64,000 nt of DNA from Rhynchobatus australiae. Lineage: Eukaryota. A program made the translations under genes and the position numbers. The stretch lies in contig JAUZTB010000048.1 of assembly GCA_034780895.1 (NCBI GenBank), forward strand, positions 24,270,500 to 24,334,499. Direction: 5' to 3'. Positions within the stretch are counted from its first letter, which is position 1. Each line of letters starts with the position of its first letter. The notes under the pieces were generated by a model. It did not search any database. It was not told the DNA's origin and worked only from the letters and a program-made list of their open reading frames with translations. Positions 6,361 through 58,500 of this stretch are shown here, piece after piece.

Positions 6361-6379
6361 ATAAACTAACATAGGACTT

Positions 6380-10870: not shown

Positions 10871-10998
10871 ACAATACACAAAAAGTGCTGGAGGAACTCA
10901 GCAGGTCAGGCAGCATCCATGGAGGGAAATAAACAGTCGACGTTTTGGGCTGAGACCCCTCATCAGGACTGGAAAGGAAGAGGGCAGAAGCCAGAATC
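10871..10998 (-). mobile_element. Penelope-like pLTR-derived short repeat carrying a minimal hammerhead motif
   Basis: Reverse complement: ...ccagtcCTGATGAggggtctcagcccaaaacgtcgactgtttatttccctccatggatgctgcctgacctgctgagttcctccagcactttttgtgtattg. Confidence 0.85.
10934..10971 (-). ncRNA. Minimal type-I hammerhead ribozyme motif (core G12 mutated to A, probably inactive)
   Basis: CAGUC-CUGAUGA-g-GGGU cuca GCCC-AAAAC-GUC-GACUG. Helix I CAGUC/GACUG, helix II GGGU/GCCC, palindromic ACGU helix III. Confidence 0.75.
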
Positions 10999-11777
10999 AA
11001 CTGAGATTTTTTTTTGGACTATTAGGTGTTATTTCTGTTGATACCACAACACACTTATAATTCACCTTTTGATGTTAGATGGTATAATTTTTCCAATGAG
11101 TCAGGTTTGTTGAAAGGGAGCGTAGGAACCAGGGCCCCATTAAATTGAAAGAGTGTAACATCACTTGAGCCACATGCTAAACAATCGGAATTAATTGGAT
11201 AGAGGATTTGTTTTTTAACTGTATTGTGGTAGTTCCCTGGAATTAAGAATGAGTTTTATGAACAACTAAATTCCTGATCTGAGTGGAGAGCACATCAATT
11301 TGTGCTGTTTTTGATTGTTGGCAATGTGTTGTAGTTCTGAGCTCACCGTTGACTGCTGGCACATATCAGTTTATGTAAAAATGATATTCCCTTTTAACAG
11401 AAGATTGCTGATTTCGGATGGTCGTGCTGTGTGTCTTTCAGGAGCAGAAAACCCTGCATGAAAATACTAATCCTTTTACATCAGTAATGAGCATCATCTG
11501 TTTCATTTGTGTGAAGCGATTTCCCCCAAGCAACGTTTCAACTTTAGTTGCAGACATTCTTAATGCACCTGTTCCATTCTTAATATCTTCCTGTTTCTGG
11601 AACTTTGGTGCATTTGTATTTTATTCTAGTATGATTATCTTATTAAAGTACATAAACATTTTGGTGAGGAAGAGTACATAAACTTCAGTGAAGTGCAACA
11701 AATTGGCATGTTATGGTTCCAAACACTAATGCACTTGCACTTGTTTCTTCCCATCCAACAAAACCATTAAGAATCTG

Positions 11778-12015
11778 AAGTGTCAGCTGATCAACAGACA
11801 GTACTTGCCTCTTGAGTCAGGATTTTATAAATTCAAGCCACAGTCCAGCACTCTAGCATATTAATTCAGGCTGGCACTTAAGTGTAGTTTGAGAAAGTGC
11901 TGCTTTGTTGGAAGTGTCATCTTTTGGATCTGTTGATGAATCCTGGCTACCTTTCAAAAAGTGTAAAGGACATTGGAACATCTTGAGGTCATGAAAGGTG
12001 GTATATAACTTTGTT
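11778..12015 (+). mobile_element. DeuSINE (SacSINE1-like), internally deleted
   Basis: tRNA-like head cttgcctcttgagtcag...ttcaagccac, aggctggcact...gtgctgc...gtcatcttttggat, and the L2-like tail tgaggtcatgaaaggtggtatataa. Confidence 0.7.
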
Positions 12016-12649
12016 TTTTTTTCCCCCCAGGTTGGTTACTAGCTAATTGTGGTTTCATATGTGCCTTGAGCCTGTGTCTGGCACTGCAGTATATTTGGAG
12101 CCATTAATAGCACCGATTGCTCTAGAAATATCCCAACTGAAAGCATCTATAGTAAGGATATTGAATTTTAATCTTTAAATTTGTCTCTGTTAATAACTTG
12201 TGTTGCTTGATAGTTTTCATCTCCAGTAGCCAGTGGGGGACAGGGGGACAATGATGGTGACTAGCCACAGTCCTGCCATATGGCAACGCAATTTTCACCA
12301 CCGCACTAATAAAATTCCATGCCTATAATTCTTCACACATGCATGGTGATGTGAATCACCTGTTTTTTTTATATATATATATAAGATTTTTCCACTCTCT
12401 TTACAGCCTTTCTGAGTTTGTAATTCTGATAAATTCAGGTCAGTCGCATTTGGGGGTATCTTTGGCCACCTGTTGCAAGTTTTACTTCACCTTCTACAAG
12501 TTGAAATCTTGCAAATTGCCAAGTTATGCTTGCTTGCTTTTTCACTGTCCATGTGTGTCACAGCTAAACCATTTGTATTTCATCGAAAGAATTAATGTGA
12601 GAGTTTTAAAAAGACCAATCAGACTTGTATGGGACAACATATATTTAAT

Positions 12650-13015
12650 CAGTAGCCAAGTTCATTGCTGCGTGCACAAGTAGTGAGGTACAAGTACAGT
12701 GGAAAAACTTGCTTGCAGCAGCATTGCAGGTATGAAGGTTCAGATAACATTCAGCAAGACAAGAGGAAAAAAGATTTTTTGCACTAATCAGACACAAGTC
12801 CATGGTAATGCAAGAGTTGGTCCGTAGTGCTCTATTGCTGAGGTGACGTTAGGGTTGTGCACGACCGTTCAAGATCCTGATGGTTGTAGGAAAGTAACTG
12901 TTCCTGAACCTGGAGCTATGCGACTTCAGGCTTCTGTACCTCCTGCCCAATGGTAGCAGTGAGAAGAGGCTATGATCCAGAATGTGGGGATCCTTGACGA
13001 TAGATGTTGCCTTGA
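12650..13015 (-). mobile_element. Rex1/Babar-like LINE 3' end
   Basis: Reverse strand reads KDP.....LFSLLP.GRRYRSLK.....FRNSYFPTTIRILN, followed by the 3' UTR tttttccactgtac. Confidence 0.8.
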
Positions 13016-13537
13016 GACTTGCGTTTCCTGTAATTGAAATTTTCTGGTAGTATATTGATATTTCATTTTACCTTTTTTGTTAAATTGCATTCTGGACTAA
13101 TTTGAAAATGAGAATATATGAAACTTATTGTCTCTCCTATAACATTAAACTGCTGTGATTTTTAACTTTCACACCGATAAAGCCACTTGCTACTAGACGT
13201 GTTATCTCACTTCTCTGACATCTGCAGTCACAAGTTATGGATGCACTCATGTGGGTTCTAGTTTGAAAGCCAATAGGCAATGAGTCAAATGATAGTAAAT
13301 TTTAGACATGGAAAATTTTAGAATACAGTATTGTAATGTAGGCCATTTATTTTAAATGAACAAACGATATGCATTTTGAATGGAGCTTAATTCCTTGCAA
13401 TGTTTGCCAGCATTGTATTCCATAACATGTCCCTCTATAGGATGTGTTCCTACGATCCTAGTCTGAATATCCTGTGAAGCCAGTGCCTCTGTGCTGCTGA
13501 GGTTCTACTGTGATTTGTAACTGAAGTTAATCATTTG

Positions 13538-13867
13538 AAGAATCGTAGCACAGAAATGGGCCCTTCAACCCACCAATTCTGTGCTGACCATCTAGCACCC
13601 ATTTACACCAATCCCATTTTATTATCCCCACATTCCCATCAACTCCCCTCTGATTCTACCACTCACCTACACACCAAGGACAATTTACAGTTGCCAATTA
13701 ACTTGTCAACCAGCGTATGTTCAGGATGTGGGAGGAAACCATGGTGCCCAGGCAACACCTCCATTATCACATAGGAAATGTACGAACTTCACCAACTGCA
13801 CTAGAGGTCAGAATTGAAAACCGGATCCTTCAAGCCATGAGGCAGCAGCTCTACTAACTGCACTGTA
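13538..13867 (-). mobile_element. HE1-like V-SINE, near full length
   Basis: Antisense tRNA head (gaggcagcagctctacta, ggtcagaattgaa), V domain (ggatgtgggaggaaacc) and CR1-derived tail (agcacagaaatgggcccttcaaccc). Confidence 0.85.
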
Positions 13868-14157
13868 TTTTAATGTCTGTTTTTGGTATGATATAAACAT
13901 ACAGCAATTTTCTAAACACTAATTTTCTTTGTCCTTGTTTCCTTTTTCTGAAGTTTAAAATTTCATCTAATAGCAAAAGAATCTACAAATTTTGAATAAT
14001 GTATTATCTCCCTTATTTTCTAGGTTTGGGTTTGAGAGATTTTTATACGTTTCATTCTTTTATGATTGACACTCCCACCTTTGCATGATTTTGTAAAACT
14101 TCTAACAAAAAGCTAAATGTAAATGCATTTACATTTAAACACCTAAATAAAAAATTC

Positions 14158-14260
14158 CAGTTCTGATAAAGGGTCTTCAACCTGAAACATTAACTGTTTC
14201 TCTTTCTACAGATGCTGCCTGACGTGCTTGGTGTTTTCAGCATTTTCTGTCTTAATTTAA
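14158..14260 (+). mobile_element. Penelope-like pLTR repeat with decayed hammerhead (14158-14196)
   Basis: CAGTT-CTGATAA-agggtcttcaacct-GAAAC-ATT-AACTG followed by tttctctttctacagatgctgcctgac...cagcattttctg. Confidence 0.8.
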
Positions 14261-14549
14261 AGCATCAAAGCTTTTTGTATTGAGTGAAAATGTGGCAGTG
14301 CATTTGTGAGTTTGACCTGCTGCTGGAAATATAACCAAGGTCTTCAAAATATGATATTTGTATTAACTGCTATCTTATTTGATATATTGAGCTTTGTATG
14401 AAACCTATCATGTTGATGAACAATTATTTTGGCCTTTTTCATTAAAAATTAGATAATCTCAGTGGCGACTCGTTGTAAGCTGCTCTCTGCATTATATTTA
14501 CTATAATCATTCTACTCATTTAACTTCTGTGTCACTAAGTATTACTAAT

Positions 14550-14703
14550 AATGTTATTTTATGACCTTGCACCTTATTGTTTTTACCCTGTACAACCTCA
14601 ATGCACTGTGTACCAACTGTACAAATTGATCTGTACGAATGGTATGCAAGACAAGTTTTTCCACTGTACCTGGGTACAAGTGACAATAATAAACCAATAC
14701 CAA
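14550..14703 (+). mobile_element. Rex1-like LINE 3' UTR fragment
   Basis: ccttgcaccttattg...tgcaagacaagtttttccactgtacc...gtgacaataataaaccaatacc is a reverse-complement match to 54245-54430. Confidence 0.75.
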
Positions 14704-15227
14704 AGGATTATTTTGCATATAACAACATTTTCTCTTTTTAATATTGTGTATAACTATAATTTTTTAATAAATGCACTTTCTTTTAAATTGGGAAAGGCAG
14801 CCTTGATGCAGAAGAAAGTGGGAGTTGGGCTTTGGACAGATCAATTTGTGCAGTCGATCCTTACTGGAAATTTAAAGTTGTGCCTACAACATCATAACAG
14901 ATCTACAGCTAGTAATACAGATGTGATTTGCTGCTGCCCTCCAGCTGACTGGCTGAGACCCTCAAACTATCTTGCGTTTTAAATGAATTAAAGAAAAAAA
15001 TCTTGATTAAATATTAACGTTGCAAATTTATTCTTCTCACTTCTTGCTCCCAGTGTCACCCCTTGTTTCTGTAATTGCATGCTCTTGTTTACTAAGGAAA
15101 TGTTAACCACAGTGGCTCCATGTTTGTGCCTCAGACTCTGCTGAACTTAGTTGAGAGGGAGAAAGAGAAAAAGGCTCTAATGGTTGTTACTTTTTGCTGG
15201 TGTGGGTGGATGATGGAGAAAAGAGCC

Positions 15228-15356
15228 CTGATGAAGTCTCTTGACCTGAAATGTCAACTGCTTATTTCCCTCCATAGATCTGCCTGACCCACTGAGTTCC
15301 TCCAGCATTTTGTGTGTATTGCTTCAGATTCCGGCATCTGCAGAATCTCTTGTCTT
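15228..15356 (+). mobile_element. Penelope-like pLTR repeat with hammerhead core (15228-15260)
   Basis: CTGATGA-agtctcttgacct-GAAAT-GTC-aactg...ccatagatctgcctgacccactgagttcctccagcattttgtgtgt...gcatctgcagaatctcttg. Confidence 0.8.
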
Positions 15357-18300
15357 GGTCAGAGATCCCTTTTTCTTGATCTCTACATTCATTGACCCAT
15401 CAGCTATGCCACTCAAGCTTAAAATAGATTATCAGCAAGCACTTGTATAACGAATGATCATTTGAAAGTTAATAGGGTTGTTCACAATCATGGAATTTTT
15501 CGCGAATGTCAGTCAATGATATTTGGCAACTGAGTGCAAGAAACAAAGATAGAAACTATGATGTTTGGGTGGGGAAAGAGGGAATGGTTGGCTTGTGGTG
15601 GAGGAGTAGTGTGCATTGTAGAATAGTTTGAATTGTAGTGATGGTATCTTTACTTCCAATCTTTTGATGCTGTTTTGGGAGGGATACACTTTTTTTTCTA
15701 AATGTAATGTTGAACAAGTAGTTAAAAAAGTGTGCAGGCTTGAAAATATGATCTTATGAAGGTTTGCAATGAGAGATTGGGCCTTTGGTCAGTATGGAAA
15801 TCAACTGGTGACCAGATGGAAGGAAATGGTGTAGCTTGCCTCAAAACTTGCGCTGATCTATGTAAACCAGCGGTAGTAAGTAATATTTTATCTGGTGTGT
15901 TGGTAATTGGTGCAAATTGATGAACAAAACATCTTTGTATAAAGAAACTCAAATGAGTTCTAAATAATGCAGATTATTTAGTGTTACAAGTTGTGTGCCT
16001 GATCTGCAGAATGTGGAAGTTGGTGGAGGGGGGAAACCACTGTGTTAACAACCATTTATAGTAGCTTACGGCATAGAAACAGACACTTCGGCACTTCAAG
16101 TCCATGCCGACCATCTAGCATCCAGTTAAACTTGGGTTTTTGCTGACATAAGTATTAAATCTCATGGGGAACTGGGTCAGGCTATTTGGAGTTGTCACAG
16201 ATTACCCTTGAAATTATTCATTGATACAACATGATTAAAATGCTAATTGGCTTATTTTCATTCCAGTGGAATTTAACATGTGGTATAATTGTGTATTTCA
16301 ATTGATCCTAAAAACTTAACTTGAAAATTTGTAATTGGTTAACTTTATTGCGCAGAAAAATGGATTTTATTTTTTATGGCCTGCCAGCTGATCTACCACC
16401 CACTTCAGTTGGGTAATGGAATACTTGGAGAAGAGACTAATTGTATTTCTGGAAAGGAATAAACAGCCACATTTTTCCCCTTCAAGGTACCGGTAGATGA
16501 TTTTAGTTCCACATCTCCAGTCCATTACTTGCTCTCCAGTAGAATGATGTGAACATCAGTCAAGAACTGACCAGTCTTATTTTAAATAGGTTTAATTACC
16601 AGCATGTTCAATGTTTCTATTTAATGCCTGATTATTTGGGGGGGGGGGGGGAGGGGGGGGNNNNNNAGAGAGAGAGAGAGGAGGAAGGAGAAAACTTGCA
16701 CAAAATAAAGAATCTTGTATCCTTGTGGAGCATGGATATAATTTTCCTTATTCCATTCACTTTCATTTCTCCTATAATCTTGTTGCTCCAAACGTAATAT
16801 CATCCAGGTGTATAGTTCCCGAGACACTGGCAGCTTTCCCAGTGTCTTGCAAAAGTGACTTTTTTATTTAATATTGGACAGTGAGTGCTAGAAGATGTTC
16901 ATTATATGAACCTTTCATAATAGAGCACATTTTGTATTCACCTAGCATTCATAACTTTCCAATGGGAATAAAAATGAAACTATATTCGTAATGCTTCATA
17001 TGTAAAGAATTATTCTGAAATACTACTTGCTCTTGGGCAGATGTGATGCGTATTAGTACGCTGTGTTCTTTTAAATTATTTTATTGTCATAATAGTATTA
17101 ATATTTTGAAAGACTGAACCCTCCTGGCCAGTATGCACTACTATACCATAATTTGTAATTAGGATTTGGAGTAGGCCTTCTGCTAAATACCAGCAACTAA
17201 GCCAAATTCAATAGAGTTATAACTGAGGCAAGTTTAATTTTTCTTCCCCAATACCTTTTGCTGCTAAGACTAGTTGAAGCCTTACCTTAAGTAACTCCTA
17301 AATGATCTTTTAAAAAAAAGTTTTGAGAAGCTCTACGCAATTCTCTATACTGCATTTATTTCATGGGCTGTGTGGAAGATTCCTCAATAGATGTTTTTAT
17401 GCAAGTAAGATCCATCAAATAGTTGGGGATTTATATGGGGTATTTCAGAAATGCATGCTGTTGTTGTTTTAATAAGTGCCCAGGTCTTTTGGCTGCTGCT
17501 GGCTTCCAAAAGAAGAGCCACTCATTATCTAGCTAATCTAACTTTGCATTGTGCACTCCCTTAAATTTTATTTGCTTTGCATCAAAAGTAGAAATCTTGT
17601 GGGCAATCTGAAGAGTTTTTTGAACCAAAAATGGACATTTCAATGGCCTATCTGTAAATGGGTATGGTGATAGCCTTGTCCAAATAACCTGCAGCCATTT
17701 TCTTTTATCAGACTAAGATAGGAAGTTTCTTTGAAGGACTTTTAGTGGTGAAATCTGGTACTTTCATGATTAGCATTCTGGTGCTCACTTTTATTCCAGA
17801 TTTAATTAATTCAACTTAACTTTCCCAGCTGCCTCAGCATTTGACTTCCTGCCTTTAAAATCCTTTGTCCCAGCTTCTGCATATTAGTTAAGACACTTAA
17901 CTCCTGTGCTGCTATCATCTGAAGAATGTGCAAGATCAGCCTGCTGCATAGCTCCACCTGCTGTCACAGCACTCGAGCACTTTGCCCTCCAGGTTACTGG
18001 GATTGCTGAGGCAGTGCCTCCCATGAAGTGGTAATAGACCTGTAGAGTTAGTCCATTCCCTCAAGGAATGCCATACTAATGATCTCACCATTATCGTCCT
18101 GCTTGTGTCCTTTATTTCCTTTTCAGTCAGCTGGTCACCTGTGCTAAGATGCTGCAGTCTGATGGACTTTAAGACCCAGAAAAGCTTGACAGTACCTTGT
18201 GTGGCTGTCTGCAGTTCTTCCACCAATAATCAGCAGTCTTCCACCAGCCACTAGACAGTCAGAGGCCCCTTACAATGAGTGCTAAAGTAATGCACAACAT

Positions 18301-19008: not shown

Positions 19009-19335
19009 AGCACAGAGGCAAGGCTAGTGGAGCTGCTGCCTCTCAGTTCCAGTGATCCAGGTTCATTCCTGACCTTGAATGCCATCTGGGTGGAGTTTAC
19101 ATGTTCTCCCTGTGACTGCATGGGTTTCTCCCAGGTTCTTCAGTTTCCTCCTACATCCCAAAGATATGCAGATTGGTAGGTAAATTGGCCACAATAACTT
19201 CCCCTGAGTATGTAGGAGAGTAGTGGTAGCTGGAGGGAATGTGGAAGGATAAAATACGATTCACGTAAATGTGTGCTTGATGGTTGGTGTGGACTCCTTG
19301 GGCTGAAAATCCTGTTTCTGTACAGTATGACTCAG
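19009..19335 (+). mobile_element. HE1-like V-SINE, near full length
   Basis: Head gctagtggagctgctgcctctcag...ccaggttcattcctgacc, V domain tggagtttacatgttctccctgtgactgcatgggtttctcc...cccaaagatatgcag, and tail gggctgaaaatcctgtttctgtacagtatgactc. Confidence 0.9.
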
Positions 19336-20805: not shown

Positions 20806-23800
20806 GGAGACTGGTGTCAAATCAGCATTACACACTAGTGTTGCAATCTACCTATTATGATTAGCTGCAAGCTTGCTAAAGTCTTCACCCACGCTGTATC
20901 TATTGTAAAGCTGCTACAAGTATGTGTGCATGCATTTGATTCTCGGCTAAACAGTTTTTCATTAATTGCAAGTTATGATGAGCACAGACCATGTTTTTTT
21001 TTATGGCATAGGAGGAGCCTCTGCTGACTTGCAGAGCAATCCTATTTCCTCACTAGTTTTCCTTGTGACTTATCCTCCCCACCATTCCTTATTACAATCA
21101 TTGCTTTTCTCATCCCCATTTAAATTGTGGTTACCAATGTACAAGAGAAATATTCAAGCAGCAATGCAGCTTCAGGAGGGGGGAGTAAGCATCTAAGGCC
21201 GATCCCCAGCAAATAAGTTGAGCACTTTCAAAAGACACAGAAACCCAGGCTCTATGGTATTAATAGAATGTCACAGAGAAGTGATCATATGAGATGCAAC
21301 GACAGTAAAGGAAATTCAAAGAAGGCCATGATAATGTGGTTTCTCAAGACTGAGAGCAACATTTGTAGAAAGAACTGAATTTCTTTGATCTTGCTGTTTT
21401 TTGGGGGGCTTGTCCCTAAATGGAGGCTACTTAGTATATTTTGGTAAACTAATAAAACCCATGCCACTTTCTAAACAGAAAGAGACAAGGTTCTTTGGCC
21501 CGATTCAATGTCCACCTCTCACTAATTTGGCATCATTATTTGAATGAACTGATTTGTTTGGTTACCTGAAAATTGTCTACACTTCAGCTGTTTTTGCAGT
21601 TCAAAAGGGATCTTAAACACTTGTTGCATCCTCAAAATGGTTCTATTTAAACTAATCTGGTCTGACTACAAGTATGTGTTTTACCCCACATATGAGTGCC
21701 AGCTGCAGTTGATGTTATTTCAAGATTTCAGCCTTGCCATAAAAAATTATTAAAATGAAAGGGAAGGTACAGTTTTCTACCTTTTCCCATGCATTTCTTT
21801 GTGGCAGATTCCAGATGTGTGTACATCTTTCATGTTATCAAGTTATTTGAAATGGTGTAGTGGCACTGGAAGAACAAGTGGAGAATGTGATGATCCTAGA
21901 AGGTAAAATTCATCTCCATCTGTTGCTGTACCTAATAAATATTTGTGGAGCTTGGCCAAATATAAGGTGTAACGTTTCATTACCAAAACAATTGTTTGGA
22001 TTTTTAAAAAAAAATTGCTGTAAGATCTGGTGACAAGGAGGTATTGAATTCTGCAAAACTTATTTTTTAAGAAACTGCATCACAGGTATTTCCCTTGTTG
22101 TCTGGTTCAGTATAGCAAGTGCTCCACCATCAGGGAGGTTCGAAGAGAAGTGCTGCCTACAAGTTGGCCAAGTATGCAGCAGACAAAAACAATGACCAAA
22201 TAAAATAATGGATGAAAAGAACCAAATTGAGTCACTGAACTAGATTTCAGAGAAGAGAAGAATGTAAATGTTTATAGTGTTGCCAGAAAGCCTGCACAGG
22301 AATATTTGCAGAATTGTAAAGATTTAAATCTATTTTGTATCAACCCTGACAATCACTGTTTAATTATACTGTAACTGGAAAAACAGCTGGGGCACTTAAA
22401 CCGCATAAATATAATTAAATATTAACAAAGTATATTCTATTTACTGATTTGTAGAAATATCTGCAAAATGATGCATATTTGTTATGGTTTATAATTTGCA
22501 TTTTTCCCTACATTATCACGTTTGTGCAAACAATTTTGAAGTATAAATGATGGTAATCTACTTAGAATAGTTATGTATTAGCATTTGCAAAATAGTTTTG
22601 GATGATGAAAGCTTTTTTAGCTGATAAGATCTAATCTTTCTGGTTTACTGACCCTGCTATTTCCTATTAGAGTATATATTTCTGGCCTTGATTAGCCTTT
22701 CTGACAACATTTTCTTAAACAGTCTGTGTAAAAAAAAAAGGATGGATGCTTCCTATTAAGTGTTCAGCATACATTAGGTGTGGCTTAACAGGAACACTCA
22801 ATAACTACTGGGTGATTTTGGAAATCTGTACTTAACTAATTTTGTAAATGTACTCCATTGAGAAAAAGGAGATCCATTTTGGTTACCTCATCCTGACGTT
22901 CCTTGTATGTCCCCCTCCTTGTTAAATATTGAATGAATGGAAGATTTTTCTTTCAAATTGCTAGAAGTGCCCTATTTTCTGTTCTTTCTCTATAATACTT
23001 TCTTTCACACTAAGTCCAGTGGATCTTTGCACTCCCCATGACTAAAATGTTTTTATTTCCCTTGTGTCTTGTTTTGTAACTAAAATTTAACTCTAGATGA
23101 GATCTGCCCTTTTTTTGCTGGATCTTTTTTGACCTGGTCTGGGCTCAGCCAGCAATGTGTTAATTAACTTGGCTATTAAAGATCACCAGTTTGGAGTATT
23201 TTATTGGAGCTTGTTGAGCCCTAATTGGGGGGGGGGAGGGAGAGGAAGGAAGCCAGTCTCATGGTTAAAAATCAGTTCAGTCGTGGTGTTGCTTAACATG
23301 TACAAGCACAGACTTGATCATCTGTTGAAGCACACCCTTTTAGACCTTCTCACCATGCACAGTACTGACACAGAGGTACCTGCTGCACTGTGCGTTGTAT
23401 TTGGGCACATTGCATTTTCCTGATTATGTTCCCTCCCTCAGCTGTATTGTTGTCCAGAGGCAATGGCAATAATGTAATGACTAGGTATTAACAGAAACCC
23501 TTTGTTGTATTAAGGAACTTGTACCCCTGTCATTTAAATTAAGCCACTTCTGAGCTTCGTGCAGTGGAGGACTCTCAAACCTGTTGTGTGGGAGCTCTTC
23601 AAAATTATCAGTGGAAACCATGAGCACGTTTACAAGATGGTCAAAGCATTAGTGTAGGAAAATTCCCATGAAACTTTGGGATTCTCCTTGGAATATACTG
23701 TGATCATTAGCCATCTCCATTAGATTCCATGCAGATAGATATATTGTGCCTTTGCAAGAAGTAACAGGTTTGCAATTTCTCATGTTTTCATATTTTCTTA

Positions 23801-36510: not shown

Positions 36511-36850
36511 AGAGCATAAAGCATAGAACTGTACAGCACAGGAACAAGCCCTTTGGCCCACGATGTCTGAACTGACCAGGATGCCAATCTAACTAATCCC
36601 ACCTGCCTGCTCACGGTCCATATCCTCCTTCCCTGCCTCTTCATATTTGTCTAAATGCCTGTTAAACATTCCTTTCATATATGCTTCTACCACCTGCCTT
36701 GCACATCTCTGAATTATCTACTGCCTATGCCTTTCACAATTGTATATACTCTTATCAGGTTGCCCCTCAGCCTCTGATGCTCCAGAGAAATCAAACCAAG
36801 TTTGTCCACCATCCTCCTTTTAGCTAATAAACCCGAATACAGCCAACGTC
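36511..36850 (-). mobile_element. HER1/CR1 LINE 3' end
   Basis: Minus ORF DKLGLISLEHQRLRGNLIRVYTIVKGI and antisense tail catagaactgtacagcacaggaacaagccctttggcccac. Confidence 0.85.
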
Positions 36851-38691: not shown

Positions 38692-38785
38692 ATAGAGTCA
38701 TAGAGCAATACAGCACTGATAGAGGTCCTTCAGCCCAACCAGTCCATGCTGACCATGGTGCCCACCCAGTTAGTCCCAATTTCTT
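38692..38785 (-). mobile_element. CR1/HE1 3' tail fragment
   Basis: catagagtcatagagcaatacagcac...ccttcagcccaaccagtccatgctgacc. A similar tail occurs at about 16065-16125. Confidence 0.65.
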
Positions 38786-39199: not shown

Positions 39200-40300
39200 T
39201 TCAGCAGTACCTTGTGGTTAAGACCAACTGCTTTCACTCCAATTCTATCAGTTGTGAGGTGACGGAGTCTTTTGTGGGGCATGCAGACCCAGCCATGGGT
39301 GCTTCATGGAGCAGGTTGAGAGTGAGTTGAATGGGGAGGGGAAGCACTGCTTTACTGTGCTTCCTTCTATGTGCTCCCAATGAAGAGAATCCTCAGGTCA
39401 CAGTGCCTTCCTGGATCATCCTCTTCCATTTTGAGTGGCCATAGGGCAGGAATTCACACAAATGGGATGCTACACTTTGTTTTGAAAGAAATCTGAGGAC
39501 ATCCTTGAATTGTTTCTGCTGTCTTCCTCATAATCTATTGCTGTGACCGAGCTTGGATTAGACTACCTCTTTCAGGAATCTGGTGTCAAGTATACACACT
39601 GTAAAGCATTAGCAAGATGTTATTAATGTTGTCTCCATAAAATCCTCCAATCCACTAGCAGGATAAGTGAAACCATGTGGTTTGCCCATCAAAGCAGAGG
39701 AGTGTAATCAAAGCCTTGACACTAGGGTCTTGGCTTGGCACAGAATGTTGACATTGCTTCTCTTATCCTGCCACTGGATTGGGAGGATTTTGTGGAGACA
39801 ACATTGGTGGCACCCCTCCATTGATTTGCAGTGCCAGCTGTACATAAAGCATGCTTCTGATCACTGCAGCCCTGTTGACCATGTACAGCTTTGAGTTCTT
39901 GATCTTTCATCTCTCTTCCTTAGATGACCAACAGCTATGCTGGTTTACTAGAGCCAGTGATAAATTTCATCAGTGTGTGTCGTCAATGAGTGACACCTGA
40001 GATGTAGAAAATCATCCACGTTTCTTAGGGCTCATTGTGGACCCATATTGTCAAAGGATGGTTTTGTGTAGCAGGGGTAGGTTAGTGGAGGACCTTTTTC
40101 GTTTTCAGGTACTGAGTGCAAGGGCTACCCTTGTATGTTCCATGAATAAATTAGTGTTGACTTGGAGGTTGGCCTTGAAGTGCACATAAGTGTTGTGTGC
40201 ACTGCAGCTCAATGATTGGGTTTGAGTGGCTGTGGAATGGAGGTGATGTTGATGGAGTAGTTTCCCATTTTAATGACCTCACAGCATCCAGAATTGGAAA
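39200..40300 (-). mobile_element. Decayed RTE-clade LINE, RT C-terminus to 3' end
   Basis: Minus strand HQCCLHKILPIQWQDK (cf. HQRCLR.IL.I.WQDK), DTRFLK.V.., and QQKQFKDVL...KCSIP. Confidence 0.75.
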
Positions 40301-42002
40301 ATAGTTGCCTTTGTTGGTTTAGGCCACTTCTTCCTAAGAACAAATTAATATAAGGTAATACACTAGTTTCAACTAAAGAGCAAATACCAACCCAGGCATT
40401 GGGGCCAAAATGACATCCTATGTTATAATTTACATAGTTTCCTGGCAGAAAAGCAAACTAGATTTTAGAAATCTGGAATTGGCCCTTACTAAATTTTATA
40501 AGTACTGGTTCATTCCTCAGTCATTTGCACCCACTTTGTAAACCAGAGAGATTAGAATATTAATACTTGAGGATCAAACATTTGTGCTTTGACTCATCCC
40601 GTTTTATTCTCCAATATCACTCAGAATCTTGGAAATAAATTATTCTTAAACACACAGGTCTTTTTTTACAGTTGTTGTTTATTGAAGACTTTGGTAAAAC
40701 TTTAATCAGCACTTGATCTAAAGTTTAAAACTACCCTGAGTTTACCTTTTTAAAAAGTTATCTATACAAGTGTCAAATGTACTTATCTGCCTTCATACAG
40801 AATGGCCAGATAGCACTGGAGCATTGAATAGAGGTCACTAAGGTAAATGCTCAGATGTTGTAATGTCTGTATCTGTTGCAAAATCTATAGTAACAGCAAA
40901 ATGGAAAATCCTATCTTCAAAACTATTTGGGTATTTGCTGTTTTAAATTGTATAGGTTATAATTTACTCGTTACCAAGTAACATGCCCACTAAAATTTTG
41001 CACAGCAGAACACAGTGTAGAAAAGAACATAAGTGTGGTGTGCTTAATAGATGACAAGGAGTTGTTTGTCTTCCCTCCTCTCCCAAGCAATAGGATTCTG
41101 ACAGCGTCTCTCAATAAAGTAACCTTAGTAAAGTAATTAAGTTCTTTTAAATGAACTTAAAAACATGTTTCATATTTTTAATAAAAGGAAGGCTTTTTTC
41201 TCTGTAATTTTTGAAAGAGAAGATGCTGTAGCAAGTTGAGGAATCCACATTGGCTCTTTCAAGATGATGTTTCCCACCTTCAGCATTGAGTTAGATCTTA
41301 AGCTGCAGGGTTTGGAGTAGGTAAAAGGTGCATTGGAGCTTGAGATTTGATGAGGCAAATGGAAGAGTCCATTTGCTCTTGCCATTGAGTCTGTAGGCAT
41401 CATGTTGACAAACCAATGGGACAAATAATCAGGGAAAGAAAACTGCCCCAAATTATTTGTATTGAATGTGGAAAAACTTTTCTTAAATAAAATCTATTAT
41501 CATAGAATACTTGATGTAATTATATTAGCAAATGGAAGAAAACTGAACCCATGCTGAAAAGGAGGTTGTCTATTGGGCTCAGTTGTGTCCAATCAACACT
41601 GCCACCCCTGCCATTGGCACTTTTCCCATGACCAGACTTGCCTTTACTGGTTCTGCACTGTGTATAACCTTACCACACCCATCCCACAAATTGATGAGCT
41701 GCAGGCTGTGACTAGGTCTCGGGCAGTGATCCTGAGGGCCTGCTCCTGAAATCCTTGAATGTTTTTGACAGCCCTTCCCTGATTTCCACATTTCAAAGCA
41801 CAGTTGTGCAAGTTGGAGATGAACTTAGTGATGAAGAGGGCCATGCTATACCTTCTCATGTCCAGCTAGAGGTAAGTTGGACTAACCTAATTGTTTATGG
41901 CTATGTAAAGCTTGCTCAATGAAATGGAATAAGAAATGAAACAAAATGGCTATTCCTTAGTGGCAGTTAAGCAGAGATTTGTATTTCATTGTGTAGCACA
42001 AT

Positions 42003-42111
42003 TCTGCCAATGCTAGAAATCTGAAACTGCTAGAAATACTCAGTAAACCAAACAGCATCTGTAGAGAGAATTGGAATTAATGTTGCAGTTGCTGATCTTT
42101 TCATTATAACT
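42003..42111 (-). mobile_element. Degenerate Penelope-like pLTR repeat
   Basis: atgctagaaatctgaaactgctagaaatactcag...cagcatctgtagagaga...ttaatgttgcag...cttttcatta; hammerhead core decayed. Confidence 0.6.
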
Positions 42112-44279
42112 CATAACATTGAACACAAAGTTAATCCCAAATGTTTTAATCAGTGCAGGGACTAATTGTCATTAGTAAGTTGCTTATTAAATCAAAATGT
42201 GACGCATGAAGCAAATGCTAAATGTGATTTTAAAACACTCTGGAGCCTAGAAATTGCTTTACTATCCTTTAACAATAATGTAATATTGTTGTGGATCACC
42301 TTGATGCTGATAGTGAAAGTCACTTCAAGATTGAGATCTTCAGCTGCAAAGTTCAGAGCAGTGTTTTGGTTTTTCCTTGTGTTACACCACATTATGTCAG
42401 TTTGAGGTTGATGTTTGCTGTTAATCTTTTGCAAGTTCTTACAATAGGTCAGCATGTAGCCATGCAGGTCCAATCTCTGTACCCAGCTCGCAAAGGGATA
42501 AGCAGCATTTGCAAGCCATACTCTTTCAGTTACAGTAGTGAATTGCAGCTCAAAGAATGAATGTTGAGATGCAGAGAATGGGGTGGGATAGTGCTCCTTG
42601 GAGTTCAAAAGGTCATGAACAATAACCACAGAAAGTATGTTCTTTGTGAAAGGGGGCTATGGAGATCCTTCAAGGGGGGCACTCCTGGCAGAAGGTGGCC
42701 AGGGAGTCTGAGAGCTAATACCATGAGTGCAGTTTATGAAATCCTGTATTTTGTGAAAGCGCAGAATTCAGTTAGATCCCTTTTTCAGTTCTGCCTATTC
42801 CTGTGGGTGAAGAAAAAGTAGATATGGTCTTCTCTCTGTGAGTATGGAATTTGGATAACCTAACTAATGTAGCAGATAACAGCCATAGCAACTGCATGAA
42901 ATGAACCTGAGGCTAGGAATGTGCAAGTTATTATGACCTTAAGCAATTCAGACATCTATAAGAAGGTTGTTGATCTCAAGGGCGACAAAGAATGCTGCTT
43001 GAGCATTGGCCCTTTAAATAGCAAAGTTTCATGGGAAGCAGGATTATTAAAACCTGTTTTATTTAGATGAAGGGAGGTGGAAATTCACACAATGTGAAAG
43101 CTACTTGCTGCACAATGGTTGAAGTCATTTGAAGCTTTAAATCTTGGGATGGGAAAGGTGCCGGGACAAAGAAAAATCCTGCTGAAAGACGGGAAAAATT
43201 CTGCTGACAGGAAAAAGACAAGAAGAATCCTGCTGAAATCTCCTCACTAGTGTTGCATCATCCAGAGATAGGCTCAATATTACTCTTGACAAAACTGAAT
43301 TGTTTGCCACCTGCTGCCCCCTATCCGCAGCACAATTGCACATTAAACATTTATTTTGGATGTTGTGTGAAGGAACTTCTATGCCTGGGTTTCCAAAATG
43401 CATTCCTTAGGGGTGCTTAAAACAAGTTTTGAAGTCTAATGTTTATTTTAAAACACGTCTTCCTGTATCTTCAGGAAATGGCAAAATGCTTCACAATTAG
43501 TGAAGTACAAATACTGTTTTTGACCTTGGTGAGCAATTAAAAGGTTCAACTCAATAATTCCTTTACATCAACATAACTGGGTTGAGCTTTGGTGTGAATT
43601 GCAATGGAGTAGTTGTTATGTTCATAGATTTTGTAAATTCCCCTTCGTAAAACAAAAAGAGATGATTTGATATTGGCAATGGCTCCATTCTTTGGCCATA
43701 TGTGGTTGCCTTGAAAATGGTGTTTATCTTGTGATTGTCAGTTCGTGAAATTTAGGCCAATAAGATAATGTATGATTCTGCATGATGTTCTCTTACCATT
43801 GTTCCTCCTGTTCTTCACACTGGTAAAAGTGGTAGAACTAGAAGGTATTTCAAATAAATTAACTTGAGTTTTTATTAGCACAATCTGTACTTCAGATACC
43901 ATGCACTGATTTTGATCAGATGAACCTAGATGTAGAATGTCTTGCAACTATTGTGTACACTGAAGTGTTGTAGAGGCTTTAAAGGCTCCTAAGAGTGCTC
44001 AGGCACTGCTCTGATCCACATCAACAAGTGCTGACAAAAGCAGTGTTTTTTTTTGATATGGATGCTGCAAAGCTCCAGGAATTGTGTGTTGAAGGTTATT
44101 GGGTGATGTCTTGAATATCTCTTGATGGTAAGTACTTGGTATTTTATGCCTCTTGTCAGTCTTGGTTTGGATATGCTTCAACACAATAAATAGAGAATTT
44201 TTCAGGCTGAAGGATATCTTCCACNNNNNNNNNNNNNNNNNNNNNNNNNNNNNNNNNNNNNNNNNNNNNNNNNNNNAAA

Positions 44280-50010: not shown

Positions 50011-50044
50011 CCTCCATTTTGTAAATATACTTACCAAGTCAGAG

Positions 50045-51874: not shown

Positions 51875-52207
51875 GATGACACAGCAAAGAAAGCCACTGC
51901 TTCACACAGTACCACAGTTCAAGTCCTGACTTTGTGGAGTTTGTATATTCTCCCTGTCACCTTGTGGGTTTACTCTGGATGCTCCGGTTTCCTCCCACGT
52001 CCCAAAGGTGTGCAGAATGATAGGTTAATTAGCCACTAAGTTGCCCCCAGTGTGTAGGTGTGTAGTAGAATCTGGGGAAGGGGGCCAGGGAGAGGAGTTG
52101 AAGAGGCTGCGAGGCAAATAGAAAATGCACTCAGTGTAGGGTTAGTGTCAAAAGGGGTAGTTGGTGTGTAGTGCTTGGGTGGGGGGCTGTCTCTGTGCTG
52201 TATCTCC
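51875..52207 (+). mobile_element. HE1-like V-SINE
   Basis: gttcaagtcctgact, tgtggagtttgtatattctccctgt...gctccggtttcctcccacgtcccaaag, and tail ctgtctctgtgctgtatctc. Confidence 0.85.
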
Positions 52208-52803: not shown

Positions 52804-53404
52804 TCCTAGATGAGCAGAAATGCAACATATGTGAATTTGTTTATTTTTGTAGGATTAGAGACCTAACTCTTCCCCCCCCTCATCCCCCACCAGCACTCAT
52901 CCCTTCATTGTGAGTATGGTCCTGCTCAGGTTGCACAGAGATATGATTCCAAGGAGAAAAGTGAACACAGCACAGGGCCCATTCACCTGTGATTTGGGGT
53001 TAGTCAGCCTCTGAACTGGAGGTTGAAAGAATGCAGATGCTGGAAAAACTCAGCAGGTCAGACAGCATCTCTGGAGGAAATAGTCAGTATTTTGGATTGA
53101 AACCCCTCATCTGGACTGTAAGAGAAGAGGGGAGATTGCTGTCTCCAGCAAATGAAGCAGTCCACACCTATGCATTTGCTCCTCAACCACATTCTGACTT
53201 GGACTGAAAAGTAGCAGGTAATGTTTGAGTCACAGAAGTGCCAGTGGTCGAAGAAGGTGCTCAGTACCATTACAGGCATTTGTCAGTCTTTCACCACCCT
53301 CCCACCACCTACCAATACCACTTAAACAATTGTTGTCCTAGATGAGCAGAGATGCGACATACATGAATTTATCCTTTTTTTATATAGGATCAGAGACCTA
53401 GCTC
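52804..53404 (+). repeat. Imperfect ~66-69 bp direct repeat (52804-52869 and 53336-53404)
   Basis: tcctagatgagcagaaatgcaacatatgtgaattt...taggattagagacctaactc versus tcctagatgagcagagatgcgacatacatgaattt...taggatcagagacctagctc. Confidence 0.85.
53025..53130 (-). mobile_element. Penelope-like pLTR repeat with decayed hammerhead (53081-53118)
   Basis: gcagatgctggaaaaactcagcaggtcagacagcatc...tagtcagtattttggattgaaacccctcatctggactg. Confidence 0.75.
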
Positions 53405-53439
53405 GGTCTGTCTTGGACTCCACCCTTTGATTTCTTCAC

Positions 53440-53595
53440 TCCATCCCCTACTCTGCAACTTAGCATGCTTGATTTCCAACTCTTCTCCATCCCAATGAAA
53501 GATCACCAACGTAAAACATTAACTTTGTTTCTCTCTCCACAGATGCTGCCTGATCTGAGTATTTACAGTGTTCTGTTTCCTTTACAAATTTCCAT
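53440..53595 (+). mobile_element. Penelope-like pLTR repeat (decayed), inverted relative to 53025-53130
   Basis: ccaatgaaagatcaccaacgtaaaacattaact...tctctctccacagatgctgcctgatctgagtattt. Confidence 0.7.
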
Positions 53596-54244
53596 CAGGC
53601 CAGTTCTTTTTTTTCCTTTATGGAAGGTGGACCTTGTTCCATCAGGAGCCATCTCAAGGCAGTACTGGAAAATGTCAGGCAGTGGCTACTCCCTAAGGGC
53701 AAAGGAGTAACAGAATCTATAAGGAAACATGACATGACATTAACCGTTATAACATTTTTCTCATGATCTGTGACAACCTGCCCATCTACTCAGCCAAAAT
53801 CCTTTGGGTAAATGAGCAGGTGTGGGTTATTCAAAAGAGCTTTTTGGGAAGATGAGTGTAACCAATGGCTGCCTACGGTCTTGAGAAGCCAGGAATGCTA
53901 GCGAATACTGGTTCCCTCTTCACTTCAGTCAAATCAAATTGAGTTGTCTTCTATGGGTAAAGAACCTGAGTGATCCCTCTGATGCTGTGGTGAGCAGAAA
54001 ACATCAAAATATGATGGATTAGCAGTGGCAGCTACAATGATCCAGAAGGCCAAGCTGAGAGTTACTTTGCCCAATGTTGTTGAAGCTCATCCTGCAGAAT
54101 GTTGTTACAGCCTTTGGGGAAACCTGAGCCTGCAGCTACTTTATCAGAGAGATTTGGGTATTGTTAAAGAGTGTACATATTGGTCTTTACAGCATTGCTG
54201 TGCCTCTTGCTCCGCTTCCAACCTTTCCCAAGTTATCTACAATT

Positions 54245-54530
54245 TGATAAATTGGTTCATTATTGTCACATGTGCCAAGGTACAGTGAAAAACTTTGTTT
54301 TGCATGCCATCCATGCAGATCATTTCATCACATCAGTACATTGAGGTAATAAAAAGGAAAACAATGACAGAATGTTGAATAAAGTGTTACAGTCACAGAA
54401 GTAGTGCAGGCAGACAATAAGGTGCAAGGCCATGATGAGTTAGATTGTGAGGTCAAGAGGTCTGTTCAACAGTCTTATAACAGCGGATAGAAGCTGTCCT
54501 TGAGCCTGGTGATCTATGCTTTCAGGTATG
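54245..54530 (-). mobile_element. Rex1-like LINE 3' end
   Basis: ttattgtcacatgtgccaaggtacagtgaaaaactt...gacaataaggtgcaaggcc...gttcaacagtcttataacagcgg (minus strand AVIRLLN). Confidence 0.8.
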
Positions 54531-55426
54531 CATGTCTCAGTGCCTCCTGCGGAGTTACCATTGAGGCACCAAGCGAATGAGTAGCTTGGCAGCCAGGTGC
54601 TACTGAGTAGTACCTGCTGTTTAAACACTACCTGAGGATTTTAGGAGGTGTTTGAGCAGTCCACAGTCAGTTCTGAGAGCGTTTTGTGAGGTGCCAGTGT
54701 GTCCTTTTTTTTGAAATGGCAAATAAGAAAAGAACTTGCTCTGCTGTGCTCCCAGTTCTCCTGTAATTGTTCCACAACAGTTGACATCTGGAGCTTTGAG
54801 CTCCAATTTACATCAGAAGGGATTAAAATGTGTCGTTGCCCAACAGTTAATAGCAATGCATGAAAAACATTGGGCACAGTAAAGAGGATCGCGACCAGAA
54901 GCAATAGTCCATTTTTGTGATTGCCATAATTTCATTCAGAAATGATTGCCAACATGATTTACTTTGAGTAAAATCAATTTTGGATCATGTGGCTCAAAGT
55001 ATTTTTTTTGCCATTTGTACTTTTCAGCGTGTGTCAATTAACATGCCCTTCTGTTGTGGGCCACTCTGCATCTTGGACAAGTAGCTTTCTTGTTCTATTC
55101 TTCGGGCTTGCTAAATAGGAATCCATTTTGATCTTGCAGTCCTCCGGTTTGTTGCTACAGAATTTCCAGTGAACTTCCGTAACCATTTGTTACCCCAGTC
55201 TCATCACTTCTTCCTCGGACTGCAACTCTAACCTTGGTTCATTGTTTATATTTTTATTTTTGGGGGTGGAGAGTAAGCAATGTCAGATGAAAATATTTTA
55301 AATCACTTTCTATTTTGGTGCTAATGGGATTTTTCTTCATTTTGACCGGGGTGCTGCTGTGTTGAAAAGTTGTTTATTGTGAGTTCAGATTGTTTGTAAA
55401 AGTCAAACAAAAACTTTGTAGGAAAT

Positions 55427-55610
55427 TTTGCAGATGTAGAAAATCTGAAAATTTAAAAAAAAAACCAAAATTCTGGGAAAACTCAGCAGGTCAGGCAGTA
55501 TCTGTGGAAAGAGAAACAGTTGATGTTTTAAATCAGAGGCCTTTCATCAGATGCTGCATAAACTACTGAGTTTTTCCAGCACTTTCTGTTTTGACTTCGG
55601 ATTCAGTTTC
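55427..55610. mobile_element. Fold-back Penelope-like pLTR repeat: minus copy with hammerhead core (55517-55550) fused to an inverted tail
   Basis: ctgggaaaactcagcaggtcaggcagtatctg...cagttgatgttttaaatcagaggcctttcatcag|atgctgcataaactactgagtttttccag. Confidence 0.8.
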
Positions 55611-55934
55611 TGTGGTTTAACCAGTGTTGTTGCTTTAGAATGTGAGTACAGCTTTGGTATGCAAGTACATACAGTAAGGTGAACCTTCCATATATGCTGT
55701 AGTGGCAATACCTTGTCCAGTGCCAAAACTTAGAAAATTGTGTTTTTTACTTGTGGCTTTCTGATGCGTGCATATGGTGGACACTGTTTCCCCTCTTCCA
55801 ACATATGCCTTAGAAAATTGATCCCGATAGCTGCACTTGAGCTTTTCGCTTCACTGTTATAATTGTAGTTCTTGTTTCAATGGGTCTTGCATTGGAATCT
55901 GATCCCAGTTTTGATGAATGATATCCTCTTGTAT

Positions 55935-56265
55935 AAACACAGAAAATGCTGAAAACTATCACTAGGTCAGAAGCCTTTGTGGAAAGGGAAACAGTTACTT
56001 TTTCAGGTCAAAGACGCTCGTCAGAAGTTTGCAAAGAAAAAGCAATGACTTGATCTAGAGAGCGTAAGGAGGGATCCAGGTCTGGGGTGAAGATTCCTGG
56101 CCAAAGAAATAAGCATTAACGTATAGATGACAGAAAAAGAATTCAACATCATGTTGGAATCCATTTTGATGGGGATGGAGGGGGACAAAGCTAATGCCTC
56201 TGCTGAGGACTAATTGTTTAAGATCAGAGTGGGGAAAATTTCTACTGGGGTGAGGAATTGGCTGG
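55935..56265 (-). mobile_element. Internally deleted Penelope-like element: ORF fragment (56058-56265) followed by a hammerhead-bearing pLTR (55935-56028)
   Basis: Minus ORF SDLKQLVLSRGISFVPLHPHQNGFQHDVEFFFCHLYVNAYFFGQ matches the PLE pre-RT motif LS..E..VLSKGL.F.P....D...FFRRL.L..YF. It is followed by CTGACGA-gcgtctttgacct-GAAA...aactg and the common tail. Confidence 0.8.
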
Positions 56266-56819
56266 AGAATTGTAGCTGAAGGAAGGTGGGGTTGGGAGGT
56301 GAAAGGATCCAGAGCAATATTGGAATTTGAGAGCTGTTGAAATTTGATATCACAAAAGAGGTGGGGGAGGGGGATGCAGGTCCTCATTTCAAATTTTTAT
56401 CTAAATGTTTTTTTTGTACAAATTTGACCCCATTTCAGTTTGTGTAGAATATAGAGGACTAGCCTTATCCATAACTATCTGAAAAGTTGCAGACTGAGGA
56501 TCACTGCTCCCAAGTTTGTTACCGTCCATGTCCACTTTCATATTTTATATTCCATATTTCAAATAATTTTGATAGATGTGTATTAGAAAATAGTTGTTGT
56601 CTACCACTTAATGCCTTGGGCCTATTCTGTTAGCACAATCAGATGTTTGCTTGTCTCTAGACATTGATCATGTCACTCTTCAATTATCTTAACTCTGGGG
56701 AATGTCTGCCAAATTCATGCAACCTGTGCCCTTAATTTAACCCCTGAAGGCACATGTGTAAATGCAAGTTTTTATCGGGGTGTAGAAGCTTAATAAATTC
56801 TATGGATTTGTTTACCTTG

Positions 56820-57250
56820 CTCAATTTACAACCTAATCTCAGTACTGAAGCACTTAATAGAAAGATGTATTTGGGAGGAAGGTTTACTAGGATGTTACCT
56901 AAACTAAGGAGTTTCTGAATGTTATTTTCCCAGGAAATTAGGTGATTTAATTGAAATTTTCAAGAATTAACAACCAGCTTATAAGGTAGATGGAATAAAC
57001 TATTTCTGCTTCCTGGGTGTTTAGCACCAGGATACAAAATTTAAATCTGTCAGGAATGAATTGAACAAATGATTTTGCATAAGTTGGTAGATGTTTATAA
57101 CTTTTTCATAAATTCCATTTGTTAATTTTAATTGAGATATTTTATGATTATCAAAGTTTACCAACCATATTAAGGAGGGGGGGGAGAAAATATACAGTTG
57201 GATGATGTGTTGTGGGTCACAAATCTGCCTTGATCTTGATGAAAGCTCAA
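56820..57250 (+). mobile_element. Highly decayed CR1 LINE 3' fragment
   Basis: gaaggtttactaggatgttacct...aggtgatttaattgaaattttcaag (RFTRM.P and GDLIE.FK motifs). Confidence 0.6.
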
Positions 57251-58334
57251 CCAAAGTTGGTGTTTCAAGGTAGCAGGTAACACCTGGAAAGTTGGTGAGT
57301 GTCTCAGCCTAGTCCCCTGTACACAATGGAGTAGGTTATTCCCCAGTAATTTGTCCCATAATCTCAGTGTTGGAAAAATGGGAATTCTATCTTCTAACAG
57401 AGGTAGAGGACAAATTGAGCAGGTCCAGTGGTCAGAGCAGACAGATGGGGGTGAAGGAGGCTGGTAGGCTCAACTGCATTTACTTTAATTCGAGTTGTCT
57501 CGCAAGTAAATCATATAAACTTAGAGCAACAGATGGAACTACAGTGTTATAGCAGTCAGAGAAATGTGGTTGGATGAAGGGCAGGACTGATGATTTAATG
57601 CTCTGGGGTACAGAATTTTCAGACGTGACAGGAGGGTGCAAAAGAGGAGGGGAAATTACACTTTTGATTAGAGAGAACATCACAACACTAATAGAATATC
57701 CTGGAGGGATCCTTGAACGAGGCCATATGGATGGAACTTGAGAGTAAGAGAGGACTGATCACTTTGCTGGAGCTATAGCATAGGCCTCTAATAGTCAGCA
57801 GGAACAGATGTGTAAGAAAATTGCAGAAAGGTGTAAAAGCAGTAGGGTTTATAATAGTGGGGGATGTTAACTTTCCCAGTATTGACTGGAATTGCCTTAG
57901 TGCAAGGGGTGTAGATGGGGCAGAATTTAAGTACATCCAAGATGGTTCTTTTCTGAGACAATGTGTAGATAATCCTACTAGAGGAGGCTGTATTTGATCT
58001 TGGGAAATGAAATTGGGCGGGTGGTGAAAGGGTCAGTTGGGAAATACTTTTGGAACAGTGACCATAATTCTGTGAGTTTCAAGGCAGTTATTGAAAGGGA
58101 TAAGGTTGGTCCTCAAGTTAACATTTTAAATTGGGGGAAGACTAATTTCAATACTGCAAGAGAAGACTTGGCAGAGTCGATTAGGGACAGATGCTTGCAT
58201 GTTTTAAAAAAAAATCTGAAGAGCAGAAGTCTTTTAAAAGAGTTAGCTGAGTGCTGGGCCAGCATATTCTGGTAAGAGTCAAAGGGAAAGATGGCAACAC
58301 TAGGGAACCTTGGGTGGCCCAGGTTACTGAAGAT

Positions 58335-58500
58335 GCAGGAGACTACAAATACTGGAATCTGGAGCAAAGAAATAAGCTGCTGGAAGAACTCGATGGGCTG
58401 AGCAACATTGTGGATGAAAAGGGAAGGTCAACATACTGGGTCAAAAACCTGCCATCAGATCCTGATGGAGGGTCCAGACCTGAAGAGTTGATCAAACTTT
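58335..58500. mobile_element. Penelope-like pLTR-derived insertion within the CR1, with two back-to-back decayed hammerhead motifs
   Basis: tactggaatctggagcaa...gctggaagaactc...ggtcaacatactgggtcaaaaacctgCCATCAG atc CTGATGGagggtccagacctgaagagttgatc. Confidence 0.7.

Follow-up and report, generated by a model that had tools for sequence, protein, structure and literature searches.

The 64-kb stretch of contig JAUZTB010000048.1 of Rhynchobatus australiae analyzed here (the window) contains a short dispersed repeat family, revealed by self-comparison. We consider it likely that the repeat is the 3′-terminal segment (the ribozyme of the pseudo-long terminal repeat, pLTR, plus a tail) of endonuclease (EN)-bearing Penelope-like elements (PLEs), probably of the Neptune clade, and that its copies are short, old, truncated or solo insertions. 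A preliminary description of this DNA, in which the repeat was regarded as a hammerhead ribozyme family behaving like a short interspersed element (SINE) or a retrozyme, had allowed for all copies proving to be ordinary truncated Penelope ends, and this is the outcome that we now rate as most likely.

An iterated nhmmer profile collected 11 segments at nine loci, with the same positions and strands as in the preliminary description and with both inverted pairs included. In order to exclude self-matching, the profile was rebuilt minus each locus in turn, and this leave-one-out test recovered all nine loci, with E-values from 2.8e-19 to 8.1e-4 and scores of 15-65 bits; the top control scores were 7.3 bits among 20 local shuffles and 3.3 bits with the reversed window. 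No tenth locus above the shuffle range was detected in the window, where 21355-21376 and 40281-40333 scored about 7 bits. The segments measured about 100-135 nt. Pairwise identity between copies was 49-79% (mean 64%), which indicated that the copies are old; the CpG observed/expected ratio of the window was 0.15. The density was about one copy per 7 kb, and the ribozyme halves were distributed over both strands (six minus, four plus). Antisense translation of the best copy yielded no candidate among proteins, and the exact tail motif had no match in GTDB.

The ten ribozyme-bearing halves were anchored by hand on both boxes (CUGANGA and GAAA). Two helix II layouts were found, one with 13 nt between the boxes (one unpaired base, 4 bp, and a 4-nt loop) and another with 14 nt (one unpaired base, 5 bp, and a 3-nt loop), both of which folded near their own minimum free energy (MFE) in an in-script check. 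As read from these sequences, the ancestor of the family is a minimal type-I hammerhead with the CUGANGA, GAAA, and UH boxes, helices I and II, an unpaired base after A9, and palindromic positions 15.2/16.2. This layout, with a palindromic remnant of helix III, had been proposed before, and it agrees with the consensus in Fig. S3 of PMC4209133 and with the ribozyme of the full-length relatives described below. Core mismatches per half were 0, 1, 1, 1, 1, 2, 3, 3, 3, and 4. All 12 core nucleotides were present only in copy 15228(+), which retains two of four helix II pairs and two of five helix I pairs, and no half combined an intact core with intact helices. The best preserved copy, 10871(-), keeps five of five pairs in helix I, four of four in helix II, and ACGU (retained in one of the ten copies); it bears a G12A change, and both helices appeared in its MFE structure (z −1.9). 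The claim that the repeat carries a ribozyme therefore stands for the ancestor but not for the present copies.

Position 12 was G in five of the ten halves, and positions 15.2/16.2 were CA in four, TG in two, and CG, TA, AA, and AG in one each. The majority of a MAFFT alignment had A at position 12 and CA at 15.2/16.2, while the hand-anchored count was a tie at G12. TG, CA, and TA at these sites are the products expected of CpG decay. A star-tree likelihood, calculated with three parameter sets whose rates we assumed, favored an ancestral CpG at G12 and the palindrome sites by 10^1.1 to 10^2.4, with 10^1.1-10^2.2 for CG at 15.2/16.2. G12 and ACGU in the consensus are thus a CpG-corrected reading, not the majority, and the consensus given in the preliminary description holds after this correction and fails as a plain majority. 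In the remaining core, correctly spaced matches were counted in 86 of 100 non-CpG cells, versus 312 of 372 in the tail (p=0.76), and one core-complete copy was seen versus 1.1 expected under neutral decay. The absence of extra core conservation and the number of core-complete copies showed that the copies decayed neutrally after insertion, CpG sites first, and that this affected G12 and the palindrome. Judged from their sequences, the present copies are almost certainly inert; G12A has been reported to slow cleavage by a full-length hammerhead about 10^6-fold (PMC2553840). Neither descriptor nor covariance-model scans retrieved the ribozyme: a descriptor scan of the window gave seven core-like strings, none with either helix, and Rfam covariance models (4227 families) gave no hammerhead match at E≤1. 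Such hammerheads are missed by these scans because CpG decay strikes G12 and the palindrome first. G10.1 was present in five of ten halves and C11.1, which lies within a decayed CpG, in three of ten; at this pair, the 14-nt layout mostly has A-U.

The link to PLEs came from the open stretch located directly 5′ of copy 55935(-), in the same strand, which had three protein matches in an exhaustive phmmer search (best E 1.5e-6). This fragment, 56303-56070(-), is a decayed N-terminal piece of a PLE open reading frame (ORF), from the region preceding the DKG motif, with a weak extension to about 56380. It was the only clear PLE coding remnant in the 64 kb when 49 proteins and a profile were searched (tblastn E 5.9e-13), scored 37 bits versus a control maximum of 3.7, and ends 41 nt before C3 of the 55935 copy (rough chance 0.004). 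Its best match (P0001) has the DKG motif seen in PLE proteins and retrieved 46 longer proteins, most of them with RVT_1; in a rescan of four of these, GIY-YIG was found in three and RVT_1 in three. A CX2-5CxxC linker between the reverse transcriptase (RT) and EN was present in 31 of 31 relatives with the YIG-ET motif. This linker has been tied to Neptune/Nematis (PMC8557442), and it points to Neptune through the relatives, the window's own element being without that region. None of 19 candidates scored in a word-indexed search with the ORF fragment, Pfam gave nothing above cut-off on 12 window ORFs, and the best value of the fragment in the ESM Atlas (0.79) was uninformative, while P0001 led there to DUF8422 and GIY-YIG-bearing clusters. 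The window searches showed a coding remnant at one of the nine loci and none at the other eight. Just downstream of the 55935 tail, 55577-55925(-) weakly matched the N-terminal part of the PLE profile (10.3 bits locally, 0/300 shuffles). This segment was chosen after the fact, has a whole-window E of 0.024 and two in-frame stops, and did not match the closer protein P0002; if real, the match would give the canonical order of a pLTR followed by an ORF start.

Full-length relatives were obtained by scanning GTDB with an alignment of 16 PLE proteins, which gave 23 loci (L001-L023). Of these, 11 have an ORF complete at its C-terminus, and in nine a minimal hammerhead lay 105-1044 nt behind the ORF in the same strand. 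At the two loci without one, the flank measures only 239 and 430 nt; among the nine, three belong to one family and two share a contig. That family (L001, L002, and L004; Neptune-type, proteins P0004-P0049), whose members are the full-length elements nearest to the ORF fragment (tblastn E 1e-8 for L001), has a ribozyme with the 13-nt layout and GAAA-CG-U-C, and in two of the three loci the element stops about 125 nt beyond the cleavage site. The ribozyme, situated about 105 nt past the ORF, has C for U at position 4 in all three and was missed by a strict descriptor. The tail sequence is also different, and an identity of only about 32% to the window fragment indicated that this is a related family and not the parent. 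The 23 loci are near-complete animal-type PLEs with hammerheads inside bacterial assemblies, nine of them from one record, and most likely represent host DNA contamination in microbial assemblies.

The ends of the copies were also examined. By eye, tails end about 60-70 or about 95-100 nt beyond the cleavage position. Four of ten tails showed support for an optional 3′ extension of about 30 nt (p≤0.015 versus random windows; three of these four were donors for one another), which was marginal in one (0.026) and absent from five. Head-to-head inverted junctions were found at two of the nine loci: at 55546-55553 an inverted tail is fused to helix I through about 4 common bases, and at 58452-58468 two ribozyme halves make a palindrome. 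Both arms of the latter carry A9>G, which suggests that they derive from one template RNA or that one arm later converted the other. Inverted junctions, solo pLTRs, internal deletions, and an optional tail of 30-40 bp are reported as typical of PLEs (PMC3846280, PMC8557442). The start of the tail in copies 15228, 55427, and 58335 is complementary to a site at about +55 nt and to its repeat in the optional extension, and two alternative tail hairpins could mark two RT start sites. RNAalifold predicted on the tail a single 5-bp helix with no compensatory pairs, and single-copy tails folded no better than shuffles; these analyses did not show a conserved tail hairpin.

These features suggest a mechanism for the formation of the copies. 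A PLE protein with RT and GIY-YIG domains would nick DNA and begin reverse transcription at either of two internal sites of the RNA, both downstream of the ribozyme; this was shown for an anole PLE (PMC11167929) and is inferred here from the two classes of 3′ end. Synthesis would usually halt early, the shortest products being the ribozyme and tail only. The template would be uncleaved RNA, since the copies run through the cleavage site rather than ending there, with the ribozyme first and in the same register. Some insertions would join two products head-to-head, the arrangement seen at the two inverted loci. Following the literature, the ribozyme of the source element would fold helices I and II, helix III being completed by pairing of ACGU with a second copy, and its cleavage would be weak, taking place in the dimer or with help from a protein; dimer cleavage of minimal hammerheads is known (PMC6765202). 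Decay then proceeded as described above. In the anole element, Poseidon PAc of Anolis carolinensis, reverse transcription is reported to start about 85-92 nt past the cut site, the ribozyme is followed by a tail corresponding to the stretch between two RT start sites inside the RNA, extension occurs on both DNA strands, and the template is RNA that has not been cleaved (PMC11167929). The same events, shown for the anole, may account here for the common 3′ end, the copies spanning the cleavage site, and the inverted pairs. According to the linker motif of the relatives of the window element, PAc would belong to another clade; its ORF starts inside the ribozyme.

The copies also resemble the minimal hammerheads described in PMC4209133, with which they share the type-I topology, one unpaired base after A9, a helix II of 4-5 bp, GAAA-CG-U-H without helix III, a pyrimidine-rich 5′ flank in some copies, and a distribution mostly as dispersed singletons with opposite-strand pairs. 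Those singletons are considered there as probably truncated PLEs, and some of the opposite-strand pairs are 100-700 bp apart. Minimal hammerheads are known from PLEs of fish, lamprey, coelacanth, frog, and reptiles (PMC4209133), and PLEs have been annotated in the whale shark, where they are abundant in introns (PMC8455134, 10.1101/443036). The 56 motifs in Fig. S3 of PMC4209133 include none from a chondrichthyan, and six shark and ray names do not occur in its supplement PDF. Since the copies in the window are too decayed for a descriptor, their density is not comparable with the 4,000-9,000 motifs reported for coelacanth and Xenopus (PMC4209133). No description of this repeat family was found in the literature consulted, in which subscription papers were thinly covered; in the review PMC6155905, “shark” refers to a fold. 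The supplementary consensus units of 10.64898/2026.07.22.740005 may hold this family.

Several results weigh against an origin of the repeat from truncated PLE ends. Covariation in the helices was 0.240 versus 0.222 in shuffled alignments (169/500 shuffles), from nine rows with the two layouts out of register. The sole ORF link is an N-terminal piece, which requires either an internal deletion of about 2 kb or a chance fusion, and the approximately 40 nt that separate 56070 from the ribozyme showed no significant continuation of the ORF (p ~0.3). The window tail showed no similarity to that of L002 (653/1000 shuffles scored as well), and no full-length element of this repeat family was seen in the searches. 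No GIY-YIG remnant was found within 900 nt upstream of any of the ten halves, as expected if the copies are short. Finally, about half of the 5′ ends lie, by eye, within about 8 nt of helix I, tighter than random truncation suggests: one segment is tail-only, about five end at helix I, two to three are slightly longer, and one is fused to the ORF piece. This clustering may in part be a detection limit, because the upstream region is of low complexity and may differ between subfamilies. The only pair with significant common upstream sequence was 10871/53025 (about 23 nt, pyrimidine-rich; score 23 versus a null maximum of 16, n=138). In these two copies, at 10966-10990(-) and 53113-53135(-), a pyrimidine tract ends in CAG at the 5′ strand of helix I and is splice-acceptor-like; in Drosophila virilis Penelope, an intron is reported to end at helix I (PMC4209133).

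The 5′ ends at helix I leave room for a short non-autonomous master or for a run-off or strong-stop product. It is conceivable, if improbable, that the short copies are a defined product, generated either by reverse transcription from an upstream pLTR tail running to the RNA 5′ end or to a strong stop at helix I, or as a mini-element of ribozyme and tail, about 110-140 nt long, with its own masters. We regard as rather unlikely that the repeat is a short non-autonomous PLE derivative (ribozyme and tail, or ORF start, ribozyme, and tail) with its own masters, mobilized in trans by a PLE protein and SINE-like without being an RNA polymerase III (Pol III) SINE. Such a derivative would be consistent with the 5′ ends clustering at helix I in about five of ten halves, with the eight loci lacking a coding remnant, with the 55935 locus, which looks internally deleted, and with the density of one copy per 7 kb; in a rotifer, pLTR sequences alone have been reported as sufficient for trans mobilization (PMC3846280). 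However, the two layouts, together with an identity of only 49-79%, argue for several old source families and not for one master, two copies extend past helix I with common upstream sequence, one tail-only product exists, and an internal promoter was not found in the copies.

The SINE/retrozyme-like behavior proposed in the preliminary description was not borne out. ARAGORN identified no tRNA gene at the loci, a B box was found at none of the nine, and stray A-box-like matches occurred at four of nine, none of them in head position. The longest common word in the flanks was 7 nt, at four of nine loci, whereas random controls reached at least 7 nt in 148 of 470 cases, although age could hide target site duplications (TSDs). 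Tandem units and circular RNA are the defining features of retrozymes (PMC7229834), and no tandem units were present at the loci: the nearest same-strand neighbors are 474 and 1065 nt apart and their spacers are unrelated. Without tandem units, Pol III boxes, or TSDs above chance the label fails, and the copies, which span the cleavage site, bear the marks of PLEs instead. Dispersal without an ORF is the expected state, because most such ribozymes are reported as dispersed single copies (PMC4209133). That the copies are dispersed monomers of a non-LTR retrozyme, excised by the ribozyme, circularized, and re-inserted, is in our view very improbable. Tandem hammerhead repeats with a mean unit of 363 bp have been reported in one chondrichthyan, as have dispersed monomers in Xenopus and a derivation of retrozymes from pLTRs (10.64898/2026.07.22.740005), and the animal non-LTR retrozymes are likewise short, non-coding, PLE-related, and equipped with a type-I hammerhead; nevertheless, theirs are tandem units of 150-450 bp with circular RNA (PMC7229834, 10.64898/2026.07.22.740005), while the window copies are 100-135 nt long, in one register, ribozyme first, uncut, and not permuted. 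We see hardly any chance that the hammerhead likeness is accidental and the repeat another anonymous element. Such a coincidence would explain the missing Rfam match, the plain majority without G12 and palindrome, and the missing covariation, but the matches at the ten non-CpG core positions are correctly spaced, the best copy folds into helices I and II, the absent positions show the pattern of CpG decay, and PLE relatives share the layout. Retention of some copies by the host as working ribozymes, intronic or intergenic, has a probability that is next to nil: copy 15228(+) keeps the full core, and its stretch 15.1-16.1 could self-pair via G-U wobbles, but no half keeps core and helices, the core shows no excess conservation, and both strands are represented.

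The individual copies are preserved to different degrees. Copy 10871(-), at 10872-10988, consists of the ribozyme and a short tail in the 13-nt layout, with C3 at 10966 and the cleavage position H17 at 10939. At 14155-14256(+), the ribozyme has the 14-nt layout and a short tail, bears G8>A, and has lost the palindrome (CA), whereas 15224-15350(+), which is the core-complete copy, has the 13-nt layout, a long tail, and broken helices I and II; both begin at helix I. The ribozyme at 42000-42115(-) is heavily decayed, with three core changes, and its long tail bears an internal deletion. Three core changes are also present in the ribozymes at 53021-53135(-), with a tail and the 13-nt layout, and at 53484-53594(+), with a tail and the 14-nt layout, where an extension upstream toward 53440 was weakly supported. 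These two copies, 53025(-) and 53440(+), point away from each other (C3-to-C3 distance, 379 nt). They were considered as the two ends of one element, which was rejected, as their layouts differ and there is no coding remnant between them. A direct duplicate of 69 bp and 81% identity (52804-52869 and 53336-53404), present twice in the window, brackets the 53025 copy and a further 200 bp or so.

At 55425-55553(-), a ribozyme with G12>A, the 14-nt layout, and a long tail has its 5′ end joined head-to-head to the inverted tail-only segment 55546-55604(+) (E 2.4e-8), with an overlap of about 4 nt, forming an inverted 5′ junction of PLE type. The copy at 55930-56029(-), which lies directly behind the ORF fragment, contains a ribozyme with U16.1>G and a broken helix II, followed by a tail. 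The most decayed ribozyme, with four core changes and a long tail, occupies 58328-58463(-) (leave-one-out E 8e-4) and forms the palindromic head-to-head junction with 58455-58492(+), an inverted ribozyme half without tail that alone gave E 0.05-0.4.

Other features were found in the window. Decayed long interspersed element (LINE) coding pieces, which we take to be of the CR1 type, are located in the plus strand at 57982-58326, 58493-59490, 59673-60013, 63738-63807, and 3718-4013, and Pfam had no match on the pieces scanned. The 58335/58460 insertion sits within one of these and is therefore younger than that LINE piece. A clean exon with AG/GT ends is present at 62933-63041(+); it had no Pfam match, and it encodes a stretch that is presumably characteristic of the ZNF395/ZNF704/SLC2A4RG family. 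A long intron or the upstream region of this gene may make up much of the window. Further dispersed repeats of similar age, probably SINEs and LINE ends, are located at 13548-13856, 16071-16131, 19025-19284, 36521-36799, 38713-38773, 51986-52077, 60338-60411, 14624-14698, and 54251-54325. The window has 13 runs of N (1184 bases), and a 30-bp exact duplicate flanking a 100-N gap at 29547-29706 is probably an assembly overlap.

These results extend the minimal hammerheads of PLEs to a repeat family for which we have found no description so far, a finding of modest importance in itself, and they are of use in annotation, where anonymous repeats of 100-135 nt can be labeled as PLE ends. The role of the hammerhead in PLEs has been described as unclear, or as dispensable in vitro (PMC8557442, PMC11167929). 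Were the same clustering of 5′ ends at helix I seen across the genome, sequence alone could test at which point reverse transcription of PLEs halts and which function the ribozyme serves. Should the short copies be a defined product, they would constitute a very abundant, ribozyme-bounded non-autonomous family, on the order of 10^5 copies per Gb if the window is typical, and their ends would document, on the scale of the genome, the points at which reverse transcription of PLEs begins and halts and whether the ribozyme is cut during transposition.

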